60,000 nucleotides of DNA, taken from Lytechinus pictus (taxonomy: Eukaryota). The translations under genes and the position numbers were made by a program. The DNA is taken from assembly GCF_037042905.1 (NCBI RefSeq), contig NC_087245.1, positions 21,950,001 through 22,010,000 on the forward strand, read 5' to 3'. Numbering within the stretch: position 1 is the first letter of the stretch; each line of letters begins with the position of its first letter. Shown piece after piece: positions 1-45,412 of the stretch. Below the pieces are notes generated by a model. The model was not told the origin of the DNA. It saw only the letters and a program-made list of their open reading frames with translations, and made no database searches.

Positions 1-1
1 G

Positions 2-1088
2 CCAAGAAAAGATTACATCAAATGTCTAATAGAAAGTATTGAAAGCGTAATAAAAAGGATGAGATGGAGAGCGCATTTTTTCCTCAGTGCAAACGACAGC
101 ACAAGCCAAAGTGAAACCGAAGCAAACGACAAAAGAGAGAAATTTGGGTTCAAATCAAAACGCACGCCCCCTCAGATAGATGAAATGACAAACTTTGAAA
201 ATGATTTATTAGGAATTGTAGATGAGTTGGAATTTAGGCGGGTAAATGACCAATTCCAAAGGAAACTCCGGGAAGATGTTAAGCTTATTAATACTTCAGA
301 AAAAGTATTCGTTCATGCCGACAAAACCCGGAACATATACATGATGGCCCCCAGGAAATACGAAAAGCTATTGAATGAGAACATTACAAGCAAATACAAG
401 TCTGCCAACGAAGAAATAATTGAAGAAATCGACCGTGAATCAGAAATGATTGCAAGAAAATTAGACATCGGTGATAGAATAAACAACACACCGGAAAAAG
501 CAGCGTTCATCACTTTAAAAGACCATAAGGAAAATTTCAAAAACAACCTCCAGGCCAGGTTAATCAACCCTACGAAACCCGAATTAGGCCGGGTTAGCAA
601 GATAATGCTTGATCGCATTAACAAGCAAATAAAAGCAGAAACCAACCCAAACCAGTGGACCAACACAGCCGATGTAATACAATGGTTCAAAAAGCTACCA
701 GACAAGGAATCATTATCATTTATTGTATTTGACATAATCGACTTCTACCCCTCCATCACAATCGAGCTATTGTCAACCTGCCTAAGCTGGGCCCAGAAAT
801 TCACTGCCATCGAAGATGAAGAAATGGAAACGATCATGCACGCAAGGAGAACATTGCTCTTCGACAACAACAACAAAGCGTGGGAAAAAAGAGAAGGCCG
901 AAAGCAATTTGATGTTTCCATGGGTGCCTACGACGGAGCCGAGATTTGCGAGCTCGTAGGATTATATGCTCTGTCACAGTTAAACAAAAGAATCAACACC
1001 TATAGTGTAGGCCTATACCGCGACGACGGACTAGCGGTACTCCGACGAGCATCAGGGAGCAGGGCGGACAGGGCGCGAAAAGACCTCA
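2..1088 (+). CDS. PLE ORF, N-terminal/RT part (frame open from base 2)
   Basis: Frame of ORF 59..1099 has no stop back to base 2 (PRKDYIKCLIESIESVIKRMRWRAHFF); catalytic YRDD near 1015-1026. Confidence 0.88.
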
Positions 1089-2663
1089 CCCAGGACTAAA
1101 ATCCAGTTGAAACCAATTAGAGCAAAACCAATTGAAACCAGTTGGCCAACTGGTTTCAATAGGGAAATTGGAACAACTGGAACCAATTGAAACCAGTTGC
1201 CAACTGGTTCCAGTTAAAACCAATTGGGCAACTGGAACCAGTTGGCAATTGGTTTCAATTTGTTCCAGTTGAAACCAATTAAGCAACCAGTTGGCAACTG
1301 GTTTCAATTGGTTCCAGTTGTTCCAATTTCCCTATTAAAACCAGTTGAATCCAATTGGAGGCAACTGGTTTCAATTGGTTCCAGTTGAAACCAATTGGAG
1401 GCAACTGGTTTCAACTGGAACCAGTTGAAACTAATTGGTTTCCAACTGGATCCAATTGGAAATTCCAGTTGGAATGAGTTAATGAGTTACAAATTAATTA
1501 TAATTTGCACTAACTATATTGCTCATGCCAACAAAGAAGCAGTGCTATATGTTTATTAATACCAATGTAAAGGGCATTGATAAAATAGACATTTTAATGT
1601 ATATATATTTACATGAAAGATCTTCAAATATATGTATTTGTATTTGATGTAATTTGGTAACAGTTAGTGGTGTACTAATTATCTTATAATCTGTTTTAAT
1701 TATAATCTATAACATTTATGAACATGGTTTTCACTGCTAAGCATTCTAAACACTTATCTGAAACAAGTATGGTACTTGAATTACAAAAGAATTAAATAGA
1801 TACAGTTTAAATGATGATGAATCACATAAAACATTAATCTGTGCACACTGGCAAATAATATGCAAATTAACTGGTTTCAATTGGAACCAGTTGGGTAACT
1901 GGAAAATTTCCAATTGGAAACCAATTGGAAGTCATTTCCAGTTACCCAACTGGATCCAGTTAGGATTTCCAGTTACCAAACAGGTTCCAATTATAATTAA
2001 TTTCCAGTTAATCACCTTTCCAGTTAGAAGTCATCTCCAGTTACCCAATTAATGGTTCCAGTTAGGATTTCCAGTTACCCAACTGGTTCCAGTTAGAAAT
2101 CATTTCCAGTTGGAAGTCATTTCCAGTTACCCAACTGGTTCCAGTTAGGATTTCCAGTTACCCAACTGGTTCCAGTTAGAAATCATTTCCAGTTGGAAGT
2201 CATTTCCAGTTACCCAACTGGTTCCAGTTAGAAATCATTTCCAGTTAGAAGTCATTTCCAGTTACCCAACTGGTTCCAGTTAGAAATCATTTCCAGTTGG
2301 AAGTCATTTCCATTTACCCAACTGGTTCCAGTTAGGATTTCCAGTTACCCAACTGGTTCCAGTTAGGATTTCCAGTTACCCAACTGGTTCCAGTTACAAA
2401 TCATTTCCAGTTACCCAACTGGTTCCAGTTAGGATTTCCAGTTACCCAACAGGTTCCAGTTAGAAATCATTTCCAGTTGGAAGTCATTTCCAGTTACCCA
2501 ACTGGTTCCAGTTAGGATTTCCAGTTGCCCAACTGGTTTCAATTGGTTTCAATTGGAAATTGTTATATTCCAGTTAAAACCAATTGAAACCAGTTGAAAC
2601 CAATTGAAACCAATTGAAACCAGTTGGAAATCCAACTGGTTTCAATTGGATTTTTGTCCTGGG
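1089..2663. mobile_element. Non-autonomous DNA transposon with CCC...GGG termini and 2-bp TSD (CMC/EnSpm-like), subterminal ccagtt/aactgg repeat arrays
   Basis: TIR cccaggactaaaatccagttgaaacca / tggtttcaattggatttttgtcctggg; CA on both sides (1087-1088, 2664-2665); AT-rich core about 1470-1860. Confidence 0.85.
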
Positions 2664-2665
2664 CA

Positions 2666-3699
2666 TAAAGGTCTTCAATGATCTCGGCCTACGCATCACC
2701 ATCCAAACTAACCAAAAAATCGTAGATTACTTGGACGTCACCCTCAACCTAGACACAGGCGATTTTCAACCATATAGAAAACCTAATGACACGGTGACCT
2801 ACGTACATAGGGCATCTAACCATCCACCCCCTATCCTCAACCAAATACCTGCGGCCGTTGAGAAGCGCCTCTCGACACTGTCTTCTAACGAAGACCTATT
2901 CAAGAAAGCAGCGCCAGCATACGACGACGCCCTGAAAAGAAGCGGGTATGACAAAACCATCAAATACATCAGACCAGTAGAAGAAGGAAGAAAAAGAAGA
3001 AATAGAAGTAGAAAAGTCACCTGGTTTAACCCACCTTACAATTCTGAAGTGAAAACCAACGTAGGAGGGAGATTCATAAAGCTAATAATGAAACACTTCC
3101 CCAAGGGACATAAATTGAACCAAATATTCAATAAGAACACAATAAAGGTTAGCTACAGTTGCATGAAAAACATGGATACCATAATAAAAACCCACAACCA
3201 AAAAGTTGTTAAGCAATCAAATCCACGAGCGGAAAATAAGCCAAAATGTAACTGTCGGCAAAAAAACCAATGTCCATTACAAGGAAACTGTATGCAGACG
3301 GCTCTGGTATACAAGGCGACGATCCGACATGGCAACGAAGAGAAACACTACTTCGGGCTTGCAGGGGGGACATTCAAAGATAGATACAGAAACCACCTCA
3401 AATCATTTAAGCATGAAAGATACCGGAACGAAACTCAACTCTCAAAATACACATGGAATCTGAAGGAAAAGAACATCGAATCTACGCTAACATGGGAAAT
3501 CGAAAAAAAGTCAAACTTAAACCAAAGAAAAAGTGGCTTGTGCAATCTTTGCCTGGAGGAAAAAGTGTCCATAATAACAAACAGAAACTCACTAAACAAA
3601 AGGTCGGAACTTATTTCAAAGTGCAGACACCGAACGAGACCAAACCGGAAACCACCGAAGCGTCAAATTGACCCGCCGCACCACACAAATAGCCAATAA
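2666..3699 (+). CDS. PLE ORF, RT thumb + GIY-YIG endonuclease part
   Basis: Joins the upstream part in frame once the insertion and one CA copy are removed: ...RARKDL-IKVFNDLGLRIT...; stop TAA at 3697-3699. Confidence 0.88.
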
Positions 3700-3705
3700 C
3701 GTCAG

Positions 3706-3754
3706 TCTGCCTGAAGATCGCCTCAAGTCCGGGCGTGAAACCGCCGGTAGCAGA
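3706..3754 (+). ncRNA. Minimal type I hammerhead ribozyme
   Basis: Stem I TCTGC/GCAGA; core CTGAAGA; stem II CGCCT/GGGCG; GAAA; very short stem III ACCG-C-CGGT; cleavage triplet GTA (3747-3749). Confidence 0.85.
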
Positions 3755-3769
3755 AGTTTAACAGGTACG

Positions 3770-3801
<32 letters not shown>

Positions 3802-3810
3802 TATATATAC

Positions 3811-3890
<80 letters not shown>
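3770..3890. repeat. (TA)n microsatellite
   Basis: Direct reading. Confidence 0.97.
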
Positions 3891-3896
<6 letters not shown>

Positions 3897-4030
3897 CAAC
3901 AGCTTTGGCAACTGTTTTATTTAAATATTTTGTGAAAGGAATGGATGAAGATAACAATGGTAGGCGTAGCTTAAATTAAGGTTCCCCAAAGCTATCTGCC
4001 CTTTTGGAAAAATTGGCAATGCCGAAAAAA

Positions 4031-4076
4031 TGTCTCTGCCGGGAATCAAACCCAGGCCCCCAGCTTTGAAAGCCGG
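4031..4076 (-). tRNA. 3' portion of a second copy of the TCA-anticodon tRNA-like sequence
   Basis: Reverse complement CCGGC-TTTCAAA-GCTGG-GGGC-CTGGG-TTTGATT-CCCGG-CAGAGAC-A followed by a T run. Confidence 0.65.
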
Positions 4077-4437
4077 TTCCCGGCAGAGACATTTTTTCGG
4101 CATTGCCAATTTTTCCAAAAGGGCAGATACCTTTGGGGAACCTTGATTTAAGCTACGCCTACCATTGTTCTCTTCATCCATTCCTTTCACAAAATATTTG
4201 AATAAAAATGTTGCCAAAGCTGTTGTACAAGTATAATTTCACACATTTGTATACTTTCTCCTATCATGCCTATACGTGTACTGTATCAAAGCAGTAGCTT
4301 TGATCCAGCTGAGGCATGGCGGCTTGTCATTGTTCAAAACCCACCTACACCCGACAAAGGAAATGATAATTGGTATAGTGTCGAAAATCTGTCTATCTGA
4401 CGGTCAGTCGGATCGGGGTCGCCCTAGCCACTAACCC

Positions 4438-4509
4438 GTCTCTGTGGACTAGTGGTTAAGGCACCGGCGTTCAAAGCTGGGGGCTCGGGTTCGATTCCCG
4501 GCAGAGACA
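4438..4509 (+). tRNA. tRNA-like gene or pseudogene, anticodon TCA, short variable loop
   Basis: Acceptor GTCTCTG/CAGAGAC, D-arm GACT-AGTGGTTA-AGGC, anticodon arm CCGGC-GTTCAAA-GCTGG, T-arm TCGGG-TTCGATT-CCCGG, A73, then TTTTT. Confidence 0.7.
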
Positions 4510-4605
4510 TTTTTCGGCATTGCCAATTTTTCCATGAGGGCAGATAGCTGTGGGGAACCTTGATTTAAGCTACGCCTACCATTGTTTTCTTCATCCATTC
4601 CTTTC

Positions 4606-4653
<48 letters not shown>

Positions 4654-11096: not shown

Positions 11097-14000
11097 TGTT
11101 GCACCCACAAATGTAATAACGCCCACAAATGTAATAACGCCCACAAATGTAATAACACTTTACCCACAAATGTAATAATTTTTGATCGCCCACAAATGTA
11201 ATAATGACTTTACCCACAAATGTAATAAATTTGAAGGGATTTTTGGCGAATCCGTTCTAAACTAAAATCCTATAGTAATGCGTTCATATAGCACAAAAGT
11301 GCAAAGTCTTTTTTTCCAGACCCGATTAATTCAAAAATTATAATTTAATTTAAAGTCTTTTTTCCAGACCCGGTTATTTCAAAAATTATAATATAAGTCC
11401 AAAGTCTTTTTTTCCAGACACGGTTATTGAAAAAATTATAATATAAGTCCAAAGTCTTTTTTTCCAGACACGGTTATTGAAAAAAATATAAAATAAATCC
11501 AAACTAGGATACGATAATGATATTCCAATGGAATGAAAATGAGAATCGAGCTTAGTCTTTTCTCCAGACCCAGTTAATTAAAACTCATGGAATTAATGTC
11601 TTTGTTGTTGTTTGAACTTACACGGTGCGTATTGTGAATATATGCGCTAAGAGTAAATTGAGAATCAAGCGTAGTCTTTCTCCACACCCGGTTACTTAAA
11701 ACTAAAAACTAAATCCTTATAGTAATGCGTTCATATAGCACAAAAGTGCAAAGTCTTTTTTCCAGACCTGGTTAATTAAATATTTATGACATAAGTCTAA
11801 ATTAAGTCTTTTTTTCAAGACCCGGTTGTTTCAAACATTATAATATAAGTCCAGTCTTTTTCCAGACCGGTTGTTTCAAACATTACAACATAAGTCCAAG
11901 GTCTTTTTTCCAGACCCAGTTATTTAAAAAATTATAATATAAGTCCAAACTAAGAAACCATAATGATATTCCAGTGGAATAAAAATAAAAATCGAGCTGT
12001 CTTTTCTCCAAACCCTGTTATTCGAAAATTATAAATAACAATACAACAAAAACAAAAACACTATAAAGACCCCATAATCTTATTAATGCTGGATAACATG
12101 GACATATAGCATAGTCTTTCAGCCAGACCCAGTTATTTTTTTTCTTCAAAATAACGCTAACAGTAATAATAAGAAAATTCCAAATCTAAGACCAAACAAT
12201 CCTTCAACCTAAGAACCTGTTTTAAAAAGAGGTTTAGAGCATTGTCTTTATTCCAGACCTAATCATTAAAAAAAATTACAAAAAAAAAATCTTCTAACGT
12301 AAGACTATATAATATTTTTATTCTTCTGGAATAACATGAGTTTTAAAACGTACTCTTTTCTCCAGACCCGGTTATTTCGAAAAAAAAATGAATTAAAAAA
12401 ACTTCAACAGTTCAAATCTAAGACCAATCTTCAAAAGTTACACCCTTACTGGGTGTAAAAATATGTATTTACCCCGCACCCAGTTTTTTTTTTAATAATA
12501 CTAAGACCCCTACAAAACATTGTAATAATGCATGGGTAAAGCAAACATCCTTTCTCCAGACTTGGTTATTATTTGAAAAAAAAGATAGTTTTTACAAATA
12601 TTCTAAAACGAATACCCAATAATCTAATTACTGTGGAATAACATGAAGATCGATTGTAGACTTTCCTCCAGACACAGTTATTTTAAGAATAAAAAAGCAA
12701 TAAAACCCAACCCCAACAACGAATCTAAGAACCAACAATCCTCCAAATTAAGACCATGTAGAAAAGCACATGTTTAGAGCGTTGTCTGTATTCCAGACCC
12801 ATTTAAAAAATAATTCAAACAGTCTTAAAAACACAAGACTTTGTCATATTCTTATTCCTGTGGAATAACACGAGTATTATGCTTAGTCTTTCGTCTAGAC
12901 CAGGTTATTTAAAAAAAAAAGAAATATTGAAAAAAAAAAAACTAAGACCAAATTTCAAAATTAAGCCCAGTTAAAATGCTTGGGTTTAGAGTGTTGTCTG
13001 TACCCCAAGTTCTCTGAAAATACAAATTAAGCGAAACTTTAATCTTAAAACTTAACCCCAGCATCTTCTAAACTATTAAAACCCTGTGATAACGCATACC
13101 ACGAAAACGACAAATTAATCATAGGAATAAATGTTCATATCTGAATGATACGCACCTAAAAACTCAAGATAACAATAACAACGTTATTCTACATCAATGA
13201 TATTGTGGGGTCTTTGTTGATATAGTTTGTTTGTTTTTATTGTTTCTTATAATTTCCTATTTTGAAATAACTGAGTCTGGAGCAAAGACTACACCATAGG
13301 TCTTTGTTTTGTTGTTTTAGTTTGGACTTATATTATAATTTTTGAAGCAACCGGATCTGGAAAAAAGACTTTGAAATTATATTATAATTTTTGAAACAAC
13401 CGGGTCTGGAAAAAAGACTTTGAACTTGCAGTATAATTTTTGAAACAACCGGGTCTGGAAAAAGATATTGGACTTATAATAATTTTTGAATTAACCGGGT
13501 CTGGAAAAAAGACTTTACACATTTGTGCTATACGAACACATTACTATAGGGTTTTTTTTTTAGTTACCGGGTCTGGAGAAAAGACTATGCTTGATTCTCA
13601 ATTTACTCTTAGCGCATATATATTCACAATATGCGCCGTATAAGTGAAAACAACAACAAAGACGCTAATTCCACCAGTTTTAATTAACTGGGTCTGGAAA
13701 AAGACTAAGCTCAATTCTCATTTTTATTCCACTGGAATATCATTATCATATCTTAGTTTGGACTTATATTATAATTTTTGAAATAACCGGGTCTGGAAAA
13801 AAGACTTTGGACTTATATTATAATTCTTTTTTAACAACCGGGTCTGGAAAAAAGACTTTGAACTTATATTATAATTTTTTAAACAACCGGGTCTGGAAAA
13901 AGACTTTGGACTTATATTTTAATTTTTGAAACAACCGGGTCTGGAAAAAAAGACTTTGGACTTATATTATAGTTTTTTTTTAACAACTTGGTCTGGAAAA

Positions 14001-14334
14001 AAGACTTTGAACTTATATTATAATTATTGAAACAACCGGGTCTGGAAGAAAAGACTTTGGATTATATTATACTTTCTTTATTTTTGTGCACTTTTGTGCT
14101 ATATGAACGTATTACTATAGGATTTCAGTTTAGAACGGATTCGCCAAAAATCCCTTCAAATTTATTACATTTGTGGGTAAAGTCATTATTACATTTGTGG
14201 GCGATCAAAATTATTACATTTGTGGGTAAAGTGTTATTACATTTGTGGGCGTTATTACATTTGTGGGTAAAGTGTTATTACATTTGTGGGCGTTCTTACA
14301 TTTGTGGGCGATTATTACATTTGTGGGTGTAACA
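11097..14334. mobile_element. 3.2-kb foldback element, TGT...ACA ends, very long modular TIRs (Ginger-like, non-coding)
   Basis: cccacaaatgtaataa repeats mirrored by ttattacatttgtggg; ~55-60-bp ttccagacccggtt units mirrored by aaccgggtctggaa; CCCCC on both flanks. Confidence 0.85.
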
Positions 14335-14378: not shown

Positions 14379-15583
14379 GGATTTTACATCAGCTTTTAAT
14401 TTTTGTTTCCAAACAGCTCGCTCGTTACACACTCTCGCGAAAAATAAAGCCGAAATATATATCTTACCGATGATCAGAGATCACTTCAAAAAGGCTTTGC
14501 TCTACTTTGCTCCTCCGCCTTTCTTTTTGCGTGATACAACACATAAATCATCTAGCCAGATCAAATTTGTTGCCCCATTATGCCACTGTAGATTGTTTTA
14601 AGGTAGTGCCCTTTTCAAAAGAAAAGGTGCCCTTTTTCCCTATGCCCCCCTCACTTTCAATTTCACTCCGCCGCCCCTGTATACATCACACCTACATTCA
14701 CATGCGCGTACACATCCTCATCCTCACATACACACACGTACACACATTATGTATCTGTATAAATACGAAATAAGTACATGTATATTATATTCACTGTAGT
14801 TTCTGTTCATTGGCAATTTCTTCTTCCTTCTTCGATACAGAAACAATCTCACAATACTATATATCAATGAAACGTTGAATCCTTTCCCTTTTTTATTTTC
14901 TACCAATGAATTTACAATTTGTCTTTCTTAATTATTTTATTATTATGGCATGGGGTTTACCATTGCCCTTCGTCTATATACATGCGTACAATTAACTCTC
15001 GTATGATTACTGAAGTCCTAAAGTATATACAACGGCTGGAACTAAATTCCACATGAGCAGGAAAAAGATATCACCAATCCTAACAATATATCCCTGTTTT
15101 CATAGTTACCCGAATTCAGATTTTAAAAACTCCATGGAAATACATACACAGTGGCTTAGAAAGTACGCCTTAATAAAAAAAACATAAATTTAATTTTGGA
15201 GTGGGGTAGAATTGTTCAGTGAGGATAAAGTCGATTGAAAAATATTTTGAAGGTTATATAGGCACTTCCATTGACGGGTGGATACCATGCGTGACCATGG
15301 GGTTTAGCAAAGCACCCTAAACAAGTATTTTCCATGTTCTAAAAATGCCCCCCTTAACAAGTATTGGCGTGTGAAACCCTACCCTTAACAAATATTGGAA
15401 ACAAAACGGTACCCTTCACATGCTTGACAAGTATGGTGTGGGACAGCTGAGTCCCCTAAACCAACTGAAAAAGAGGCTACGAATTGCCGCATGATTGTGA
15501 TGTGTATGACATGTCATAGATCCACAATGTTTTATTCATTTTTCCCCCAGACTGCAACGATTTCAAACCTTTTCTTTTCAGTC

Positions 15584-15994
15584 ATGGATGATGACTTAAA
15601 TACATCTTCATCCCCAGTCAGTGATGAACTGGAGGGTGGCTACGTTAATATTGGAGCTCGAAGATGGCTTGCAGCATGGCTCGGGACCATTGCCGTCGTC
15701 GGCTTCTTCGGTAATGTCCTCGTGGTTACCTGCGTCATCCTATATCCGAAGCTGCGTACGATCACCAACGTGTACCTCACTAGCCTGGCTGTCAGTGATA
15801 TTCTGGTATGTTTGACCATTCCATGGATCATAGTCGGGCTGGTATCTACCAGGGGTTGGCCGTTTCCAGATGAAACCTGTATCATTGTGGCTATACTTCG
15901 GTTCACCTGCAGTGGCAGTAGTGTGTGGCACTTGGTTGCTATCGGTTTCAACCGCATGTTTCTCATCACCACTTCGACGGCAACGTATAAAAAG
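15584..15994 (+). CDS. Rhodopsin-class (class A) GPCR, coding exon 1 (TM1-TM3)
   Basis: GN in TM1, SLAVSD in TM2, WPF..C, AIGFNRM; donor AAG|GTAGAC; 411 nt, phase 0. Confidence 0.92.
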
Positions 15995-16529
15995 GTAGAC
16001 CCCTTTATCAAAATGCTATCATGTCTTTGAAATAAAAGAGCTTTACTGTCCAATTTGCATTCCTATGTTATAGTTACTTAAAGTTACGATAATAATTTGT
16101 TAATGAAATAGTGAAGATAAAAGAATGATGTAGGCCTACATCAAATTGGACAAAAATCCAACTAAATCGATGATGATTTTTATCTAATAACCCCATACCA
16201 TGTTCATCCATATGTCCCTTTCTGTTCTTTAAAACGACAGAATACTTATGTACATAATTTCTGGAACCAATTACTAAAATACATGCAGTGTATGAACGCA
16301 AACGATTATTGTGTTTCTTATCAAGGATGAAGATGAGTTGTGTAACTTTCTTCGAAACATGTTCTTTCAATAAAACATTCCATTCTTCAGATCATGTTAT
16401 AGTGTTACTAAGAGGACCATACATAATGCAAATTAAGTCGCCTAGCAATCTTCTGGAATCAGCTTTTTGGATAACCCCGGGATAACCTTGATATTATTTT
16501 CACTAATGGTTAGGAAGTAACCGAAACGG

Positions 16530-17418: not shown

Positions 17419-17598
17419 CTCCATCCATAGGCGGATCCAGGGGGGCCGAGGGGCCCGGCCCCCCCCCCCCCCCCTGCAAATGAAACTGCAAGAAAACGTT
17501 TCTTCCAATCAAAAAAGACCAGTCGAAAAATAACTAACGATGATGAAGTTTTATTTCAAATCCCAGTTTAGCAGTTTGTATCTGTTTCCATTTTGCAG

Positions 17599-18141
17599 AT
17601 ATACAGCCGTGTTAACGCTGCCATCATTCTTTTTGTCACGTGGCTAATTCCTTTCTCCGTCATTATTGTGCCTTATGCCATCGGTGCCACGCAACTCGGC
17701 TATGATGACGGTCCCAAGCTTTGCAGTGATCTTGAAGATCGGCCGGACGGAACTGAAAACCTTACCCATACCTACCTTGCCGGGACTTTTCTGACTTGTA
17801 TACCACTGTCCATTGTAATATGCGTGTATCTGCGAATTTTCGTACACGTCAAACAGCATGTGAGGAAGCAGAAAGCATGGTCCTCTGGTGAACAACAGAA
17901 GAACACTAGAACTACTGGAACGACCGCAACCGCACAAGACACAGTATCACCCGAGCAGCAATCAAAGCAGAATACCGCGGGAAATGGCACAAGTACGACC
18001 GTGCAAGACCCGGAATCGAGCGGTAAGCAGCAGAACATCGCGGTGGCGTCTGTTAGCGCGACCGTAGCGAGCGCCGTGACAGAATCGACCGGCACTGGGG
18101 CCCAAGTCCAGTACAACAATCCGACGGAGCGCACTGTTCAG
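17599..18141 (+). CDS. Class A GPCR, coding exon 2 (TM4-TM5, long Thr/Gln-rich ICL3)
   Basis: Acceptor TTTTGCAG, donor CAG|GTACTG; W in TM4, ECL2 Cys, P..I...Y.RIF; 543 nt, phase 0. Confidence 0.9.
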
Positions 18142-18387
18142 GTACTGTTTTACTTGTATGTTCAAGAATTGATAAACAAAGCTGCAAAGTGTTGTGTTTC
18201 CGGGTGTGTTTCTCCTTATTGATACGAGTATCAACCATCTTTTTTTTTCTAACGAACAGACTTCATGAGATTGCAAAATAAAGGCTTTCATCAATTGAAC
18301 ATGCATATCTTGTTACTGATAAATAACTTTATTTTGCTTCTATATTTGTATTTTTAACTTTCAAACTTGATATTTCTTCTTCGGCAG

Positions 18388-30604: not shown

Positions 30605-30635
<31 letters not shown>

Positions 30636-30638
<3 letters not shown>

Positions 30639-30804
30639 CCGGCAGAGACATTTTTTCGGCATCACCAATTTTTCCAAAGGGTAGATATAGCTCTGGGGAA
30701 CCTTGATTTAAGCTACGCCTACCATTGTTCTCTTCATCAATTTCTTTACAATATTTAAATAAAAGAGTTGCCAAAGCTGTTGTACATGTATAACTTTACA
30801 CATT

Positions 30805-30875
<71 letters not shown>

Positions 30876-45159: not shown

Positions 45160-45412
45160 AATCCATATTTTATTGTTCGAAATAGACATGAAATGAAATA
45201 CTCTCAAAATTTGCTTTGCTCAATTGATCGTGGGCACGGCAGCCGCTGTGCAGTGCCAGATCGATGAGGCTCTATCCCTTTAATCGTTGAACGGCAAACA
45301 GGGTAGCAGCAACTCCAATATTTTAACGTATTTTGGTCTGATGCAGCCGGGGTTTGAACCTCGACCTCCCGGTTGTGAGACGGACGCTCTACCAACTGAG
45401 CCAACACATCGG
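45160..45412 (-). mobile_element. tRNA-derived SINE with Meta-domain-like core
   Basis: Minus strand tggctcagttggtagagcg...ggttcaaacccc, then accaaaatacgttaaaatattggagttgctgctaccctg. Confidence 0.75.

Follow-up and report, generated by a model that had tools for sequence, protein, structure and literature searches.

A 405-bp tRNA-bearing repeat of Lytechinus pictus as a probable PLE-type element and a candidate substrate of tRNA splicing

At positions 4438-4509 (+) of the window, by which we mean the whole stretch of 60,000 nucleotides of Lytechinus pictus DNA that was analysed, a single tRNA was called by ARAGORN, with TCA at position 34. The same interval matched Rfam RF00005 with 53.8 bits (E 8e-9). 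It is 72 nt long, with 7/7 Watson-Crick pairs in the acceptor stem, a 4-nt variable loop and intact A (4445-4455) and B (4488-4498) boxes. The discriminator A at 4509 is followed directly by TTTTT at 4510-4514 (+), a tract resembling a Pol III terminator, which is T6 in 73 of the 89 copies counted. A second T5 tract lies at 4527-4531 (+). The complete cloverleaf with its own terminator, described in the first-pass annotation, was thus confirmed. This copy departs from the family majority at two places: A11 breaks a D-stem pair, and a U at T-stem position 1 leaves a G-U wobble. ARAGORN labelled the module “SeC” because of the anticodon alone. The long variable arm and the extended acceptor and D stems of tRNA-Sec were absent from it and RF00005 was its best Rfam match, so that the annotation was also right in setting tRNA-Sec aside.

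The tRNA sits within a non-coding tandem unit of about 405 bp, of which it forms positions 1-72; the second T5 tract is unit 91-95. In the window this unit is present as an insertion whose direct part (4074-4619, +) runs from unit 55 to 405 and then from 1 to 181, or 1.3 units, stopping at the commonest 3′ end of the family, unit 181. The 5′ part of the same insertion is inverted (3869-4080, −; unit 23-231). (TA)n target tracts lie to the left (3769-3890) and to the right (4610-4647). The inverted part holds a second, truncated tRNA copy at about 4026-4080 (−), starting at unit position 23. The annotation had counted two local copies with a TCA anticodon; the loop TTTCAAA is indeed present in the second, which however is 5′-truncated, has a damaged B box and received no ARAGORN call. 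A 20-mer from the module had four matches in the window, compared with none in 100 shuffles. A separate 5′-truncated insertion of the element (30635-30808, +; unit 57-229) was found in another (TA)n tract.

Outside the 405-bp unit, its neighbour at 1-3768 (+) is a Hydra-like PLE that ends in the same (TA)n. Its RT ORF (1-1096 and 2665-3696) is interrupted at 1096-2660 by a palindromic minisatellite, and a hammerhead-like core lies at about 3703-3752. Just upstream of the window lies an inverted copy of this young element (G000:C1:21948395-21949426), 100% identical to it. Further features of the window were a tRNA-Val(CAC)-like head at 45339-45410 (−; Rfam 40.2 bits), with a body and without a terminator, which looks SINE-like, and two open frames (15388-16078 and 17571-18249, +) resembling, by eye, exons of rhodopsin-class GPCRs. 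A minisatellite of about 50 bp at 11180-14210 is arranged in two opposed blocks as a foldback-like element, the outer arms of which (11180-11303 and 14087-14210) are 98% complementary.

A 28-letter pattern in which the anticodon loop was left free had 2,096 exact matches in the genome, and its reversed control had none. These are matches and not loci, some of them lying within long arrays on C2 and C28, and diverged copies are under-counted. Forward matches outnumbered reverse ones (1,285 vs 811), an excess noted together with the array on C28. This array (G000:C28, about 765000-908000, on a contig of 1.25 Mb) is a long one in which neighbouring units are 99.8% alike, and hundreds of the 2,096 matches may belong to it. 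The tandem array on C2 has at least 18 units.

Insertion anatomy was surveyed at 77 non-redundant loci picked by score or pattern, which are not a random sample. Among 126 outer 3′ ends, 66 were at unit 181, 231 or 223, sites which themselves resemble TA or CA repeats, and TA or CA repeats adjoined 75 of the 126. Both orientations were present at 42 of the 77 loci. The 138 5′ ends were scattered over the whole unit, with two at tRNA +1 and one near 38, and 104 of the 114 pieces with the tRNA 5′ half included at least 15 nt upstream of +1. Inside young insertions, unit-to-unit identity was 99.5-100%, the inversion included (loci L013 and L106). PLE insertions are described as having 5′ truncation, partial tandems, inverted 5′ copies and (TA)n targets (PMC8557442), and the (TA)n target, truncation, inversions and partial tandems were all encountered in the 405-bp element. 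The proposal that the tRNA is spread by a mobile element held.

tRNA-derived SINEs have a tRNA head with A and B boxes. The 405-bp element shares such a tRNA with them, but its unit is circularly permuted, lacks a tail and does not have the tRNA as its 5′ end; the SINE form, with the tRNA marking the 5′ boundary and a tail that is fixed, was not seen among the sampled pieces. The earlier view that this is no ordinary SINE head agrees with the pieces that continue upstream of tRNA +1. Like the TRIMp3 elements (Helenus, Cassandra, Ajax) as described in PMC10886601, the element has an intact-looking small-RNA gene in a mobile repeat, forms tandem arrays and inflates tRNA counts, a suppressor anticodon among them. 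Unlike them, it lacks fixed ends, an LTR pair, a primer-binding site and a polypurine tract. In place of the TRIMp3 form (two LTRs, PBS/PPT, fixed ends and a 4-5 bp TSD) we found variable ends and no internal segment.

The nearest descriptions were those of metazoan non-LTR retrozymes and of non-autonomous PLE derivatives. The former, in the accounts of PMC7761336 and bioRxiv 10.64898/2026.07.22.740005, likewise consist of non-coding tandem repeats, each a few hundred bases long, with a highly self-paired monomer, multimeric insertions and a likely PLE helper. The 405-nt element differs in having a full tRNA and an anti-tRNA instead of a hammerhead, in its unit length (150-300 bp is quoted there for animals) and in that its circle is only proposed. 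The hammerhead core CUGANGA was not found in the unit on either strand, and no ribozyme family was among its 15 Rfam matches up to E 10. With non-autonomous PLE derivatives (Chlamys MRC1) and the Naiad, Neptune and Hydra patterns, as given in PMC8557442, the element shares (TA)n, 5′ truncation, inverted 5′ parts and head-to-tail copies. It has, however, no sequence in common with the one intact Neptune-like element compared (L105). The Anolis Poseidon RT is described as starting at a site without homology to its target (PMC11167929), while the 3′ ends here are TA-like. We are confident, though short of certain, that the element is of PLE type, lacks a ribozyme and carries a tRNA that does not serve decoding.

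Candidate helpers were present in the genome. The names Neptune-like and Hydra-like used here are a motif reading against the patterns in PMC8557442, made without a tree, and in Pfam no family reached threshold for the PLE ORFs of the window. The Neptune-like family has many open frames of up to about 900-1,000 codons; L105 (563-3289) contains an intact ORF of 909 aa, and there are dozens of near-equal copies with long frames. A hammerhead-like motif with a variant core was seen in L105 at about 4207-4240. By 3′ sequence, no autonomous partner was recognised, since the 405-bp element shares none with L105 or with the Hydra-like PLE of the window. No element-linked ORF was found in loci L001-L060, and a pLTR-ORF form of the element was not found. 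A PLE in L016-L018 was considered as a partner and rejected, being itself a target into which the array is inserted. At G000:C15:1879586-1942270, an array spaced at about 2.8 kb matched the Hydra-like RT at about 50%, a PLE in long tandem. Intact PLE helpers are thus present in the genome, each of them a candidate mover of the 405-bp unit.

The annotation had suggested derivation from tRNA-Arg, and this appears plausible. By eye, all 10 T-stem bases agree with those of human tRNA-Arg-TCT-4-1 (gene from PMC12675287), as do 13 of the 14 in the acceptor stem, with about 52 of 72 positions matching overall, and the most diverged copies of the element read TCT. A host Gly-TCC gene matched at 49 of 72 positions, only 6 of 14 in the acceptor, and has the same T arm and loop sizes. 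We prefer an Arg-TCT ancestor as the plausible one, in a comparison that sets a human Arg gene beside a Gly gene of the host; a chimeric Arg-TCT/Gly-TCC ancestry is possible. Both candidates have C32 together with C35, and G32 is therefore derived. In humans, Arg-UCU is an intron-bearing tRNA family (PMC10275265). Separately, a pattern for host tRNA-Gly(TCC) genes matched 27 times within 78 kb (G000:C13:22080297-22158142), and a further tRNA cluster lies on C4 at 9.70-9.74 Mb.

A rod is the predicted fold of the monomer, at −141.9 kcal/mol (z −6.36), and none of 100 shuffles folded as well. Folded as a circle it gave −136.8, against a shuffle mean of −98.7 (sd 5.6, 40 shuffles). In the rod, unit 45-139 is paired to 286-388 and unit 7-25 to 389-405, both T tracts included, and the 60 nt upstream of the tRNA (4378-4437, +) are therefore an anti-tRNA. 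Their reverse complement aligns to tRNA 9-25 and 45-84 with one gap of 19 nt, which is precisely the anticodon arm (26-44). The tRNA strand folded better than its complement in 16 of 17 natural monomers. Rod pairing was kept by 9 of 14 variants found in at least five loci, compared with 20 of 96 private variants (P 0.002), and by 8 of 13 compared with 20 of 87 when CpG sites were removed (P 0.007). In the tRNA body outside the search pattern, none of 43 columns held shared variants, compared with 30 of 333 elsewhere (P 0.035). Two-sided rod changes were rare, at 7 of 4,223 cells, with a single pair (83-347) changed in 2 old copies, and the support they give to selection on the rod is therefore moderate. 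G-U pairs were kept in the rod, and together with the strand-biased fold they point to a role as RNA. The rod itself could be a relic of a PLE-type inversion.

In ViennaRNA we folded dimers that start at tRNA +1 of unit n and end in the T-tract following the tRNA of unit n+1. In the dimer from locus L012, the acceptor stem took its 5′ strand from unit n and its 3′ strand from unit n+1 (P 0.98-1.0), with the D arm coming from the former and the T arm from the latter. The cross-unit acceptor had P of at least 0.99 in 18 of 20 other natural dimers and 0.79-0.80 in the remaining two, and forcing two separate tRNAs in the L012 dimer cost 28.7 kcal/mol. The anticodon stems stayed within their own units (P about 0.9), the cross-unit anticodon stem having P of about 0.04 in most dimers. 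The cross-unit anticodon register lay 5.4 kcal/mol above the minimum, or 10.4 with two G-C loop pairs, in a fold model that disregards tRNA tertiary contacts and U-U pairs. Combined with a swap of the anticodon stems, the cross-unit acceptor would place one monomer at the site of a tRNA intron, between 37 and 38. When 200 nt of adjoining element sequence were added, the composite tRNA was lost, so that the model requires a Pol III start and stop, with read-through of T6 and T5.

In archaea the bulge-helix-bulge motif is described as combining an N32-N35 helix with bulges of 3 nt, and eukaryotic TSEN is described as requiring N32 to pair with the third-last base of the intron (PMC10275265; PMC10485636). 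In the dimer, the third-last base of the “intron” is C35 of unit n+1, which is complementary to G32 of unit n. By this rule, the change of C32 to G is the one that would make a C35 tRNA a substrate of its own tandem copy, and by the motif geometry position 36 is free, in a bulge. In Drosophila reporters, a proximal G-C pair is reported to work about as well as C-G, and C-C to block splicing (10.1101/497545).

We propose the following course. Pol III would initiate at the tRNA of unit n, sometimes pass both T-tracts, and halt where the tRNA of unit n+1 is followed by its T-tract. In the computed fold, the anti-tRNA and rod arms would sequester the two inner tRNA halves, and the 5′ half of n and the 3′ half of n+1 would make one tRNA body with the monomer between 37 and 38. 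The pairs G32(n)-C35(n+1) and C35(n)-G32(n+1) would then give a symmetric bulge-helix-bulge. The loop G32-U33-U34-C35-A36-A37-A38 (4469-4475, +) is a proposed half of this motif, with a predicted cut at 4474/4475. TSEN would cleave both bulges, and RtcB would join the ends of the 405-nt rod to give a tricRNA-like circle, the UCA anticodon being a passenger within the bulge. TSEN ends are described as those that RtcB joins (PMC10275265), and they would equal the ends left by the hammerhead of retrozymes, 5′-OH and cyclic phosphate (PMC7761336). A PLE endonuclease/RT would then nick (TA)n, where the insertions are seen. Priming would occur at the TA-like sites in the loosely paired rod end (unit 181, 223 and 231), and rolling of the RT round the circle would produce the multi-unit, 5′-truncated, often inverted insertions as new substrates. 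In vitro reverse transcription of tricRNAs is reported to yield concatemers (PMC4536317).

With tricRNAs, as described in PMC4536317 and 10.1101/497545, the element would share the TSEN cut at 37/38, the N32 proximal pair and closure by RtcB. It differs in that the “intron” is a whole mobile unit holding a permuted copy of its own exons and in that the pair between 32 and the third-last base is G-C here and C-G there; in these sources tricRNAs are not described as mobile. On the folds and variants modelled here, we consider an element of retrozyme type, mobilised by a PLE and circularised at the RNA level by TSEN and RtcB, to have about an even chance of being correct. Its stricter form, a selfish tRNA intron that regenerates itself, spliced out as a rod circle via a two-unit tRNA and reinserted by a PLE RT, falls a little below even. 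No retroelement processed by tRNA splicing was found in the literature searched, with Repbase and Dfam outside that search. A metagenome scan for relatives in other organisms yielded a single match, an unrelated SINE-like copy.

Variation in the anticodon loop bears on this model, which was formulated before positions 32-36 were scanned, the expectation for position 33 not being specified then. In a pattern total of about 2,000, 28 matches lacked G32, 14 lacked C35 and 5 varied at position 34, with no dispersed subfamily, as the model would lead one to expect. At position 33, the near-invariant U was replaced by A in 18 matches, which lie on 10 contigs at 12 loci, four of these being multi-unit; C was less frequent, with 6 matches from 5 loci, and G was absent. 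At one A33 locus, an inverted insertion flanked by TA holds four copies, all with A33. Nine of the 11 A33 loci read share three downstream sites, compared with 58% of other TCA copies (P 0.09), and six of the eight complete ones share five sites, compared with 28% (P 0.007); two of the 11 probably arose separately. A33, a transversion, gives a perfect GAUC palindrome in the proposed helix. G32 and A33 are each single events, with about a 1 in 3 chance each of fitting.

Several observations stand against the model. The middle of the proposed helix is U-U, and unpaired middle positions are reported to inhibit tricRNA formation in reporters (10.1101/497545). In ViennaRNA, U32 would favour the cross-unit register more than G32 does. 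A two-unit insertion shares C33, and an array of at least five units on C21 shares A32. The latter can be tolerated as a dead end because base 32 of the circle comes from unit n+1, a post hoc argument. An unrelated SINE selected by the same motif likewise has G32 and C35.

Expression was examined in a quarter of each of three raw, unstranded RNA-seq runs from one study. Reads on the monomer numbered 1,834, 1,236 and 915 of 12.9 million records in the three runs, and 314 (run X21), 41 and 54 reads crossed the unit junction, which fits a circle or tandem read-through equally. In X21, depth across the unit (L012:1333-1737) was fairly even, and one diverged haplotype made up about 40-50% of element reads. 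This dominant haplotype breaks several rod and anti-tRNA pairs, and its dominance would reflect transcription of an array or the accumulation of a circle. No pile-up of molecule ends was seen in these fragmented, unstranded libraries. The RNA-seq shows RNA that is multi-unit or circular.

The annotation had offered a Pol III promoter or an RNase P/Z processing signal as a substitute for its main idea, a UGA-suppressor tRNA. A promoter or processing role proved the better lead, though the RNase P/Z route turned out to be unlikely. That the tRNA is an internal Pol III promoter only, as proposed for the Cassandra and Helenus TRIMs, is the rival that survives best, and we consider it possible, though we would not expect it. 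Multi-unit insertions would arise when existing arrays are transcribed by read-through or when a PLE RT switches templates, the rod would be the relic of an old inversion that aids RT binding, and G32 and A33 would be drift in an idle loop. The intact A and B boxes suit this reading, the conserved tRNA body partly fits promoter constraint, and the bulge-helix-bulge register is not the predicted minimum. PLEs and the non-autonomous Chlamys give head-to-tail multicopies without a known circle in the account of PMC8557442, and PLE insertion in vitro is reported to be independent of hammerhead cleavage (PMC11167929). However, a promoter needs neither a 7/7 acceptor stem nor a cross-unit fold, and the anticodon arm is precisely the part that the anti-tRNA leaves out. 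The two downstream T-tracts make long linear Pol III templates unlikely, and a circle is the easiest source of insertions in which at least six near-identical units are joined to an inverted part identical to them.

Cleavage of the tRNA ends by RNase P and/or RNase Z, in the manner of mascRNA, would also release a unit-length RNA. The perfect acceptor and T stems fit such processing, as does a weak match to mascRNA (29.5 bits, against a gathering score of 42.5). Yet the two 5′ ends at +1 among 138, and the 104 of 114 pieces that continue through it, are not what such cuts would leave. A double cut would free the tRNA from the monomer, while all full units carry the tRNA. RNase P ends are, moreover, not RtcB substrates. 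As copies cross tRNA +1 and every unit carries the tRNA, we regard this route as very unlikely.

Still less probable is a UGA-suppressor tRNA selected to serve the helper of the element or the host. TCA was read by 2,027 of the 2,096 matches, the intact promoter and terminator could yield a 72-nt tRNA, and human Arg tRNAs with UCA do suppress (PMC12361112). Conservation of TCA thus held for most copies, but it failed in the diverged subfamilies. Of 45 matches without A36 (43 of these places were examined in sequence), 25 read TCC, 12 TCT, 4 TCG and 4 another triplet, and G32 was kept in 40 and C35 in 41. Position 36 therefore has three subfamily states genome-wide, set against the scattered variants at 34 and 35. 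Mean identity to the young unit was 95.5% for TCA (38 loci), 89.1% for C36 (25) and 84.2% for T36 (13), and further diagnostic changes are shared by these groups. The C36 and T36 subfamilies are thus likely to be older than TCA, an age order that we only infer because the reference for identity was itself a TCA unit.

The other traits of an opal suppressor were likewise lacking: G32 stands in place of a pyrimidine, U33 is lost in the mobile A33 sublineage, and A20, the identity base of tRNA-Arg (PMC12361112), is absent from the module. Nor did the PLE frames call for read-through. Of 136 Neptune-like RT matches, 112 had no internal stop and six had TGA alone, one each; no retroelement with a conserved in-frame TGA was found among them or among the 118 Hydra-like matches listed, in which stops are scattered. 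The intact and abundant Neptune-like ORF (L105) has no internal TGA and terminates on TGA. Given the subfamily anticodons, the mobile A33 lineage, the missing A20 and the stop-free PLE frames, the suppressor as a selected function was not borne out. Weak, accidental read-through of UGA is improbable though less so, and it would not rescue the claim of selection. Spread at the DNA level without a role for RNA, as a rolling-circle DNA transposon or a satellite, is the least probable of these explanations, since it would account for the tandem arrays (such as the long one on C28 and the 18 or more units on C2) but not for fixed 3′ and random 5′ ends, inversions and (TA)n targeting, which are PLE marks, nor for the strand-biased fold and kept G-U pairs, which point to RNA.

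Even if the tRNA were a promoter only, the thousands of “Sec/suppressor” tRNA calls in such genomes would be repeat copies. If the TSEN/RtcB step is true, the element would be a mobile element in which host tRNA splicing replaces the ribozyme, and a protein-dependent counterpart of retrozymes. As a by-product it would leave as many as two thousand Pol III genes, look-alikes of a tRNA with a UGA anticodon. It would link tricRNAs, retrozymes and PLEs, and it would provide both a working example of tRNA-intron mobility and a natural design for circularising RNA with a long cargo.
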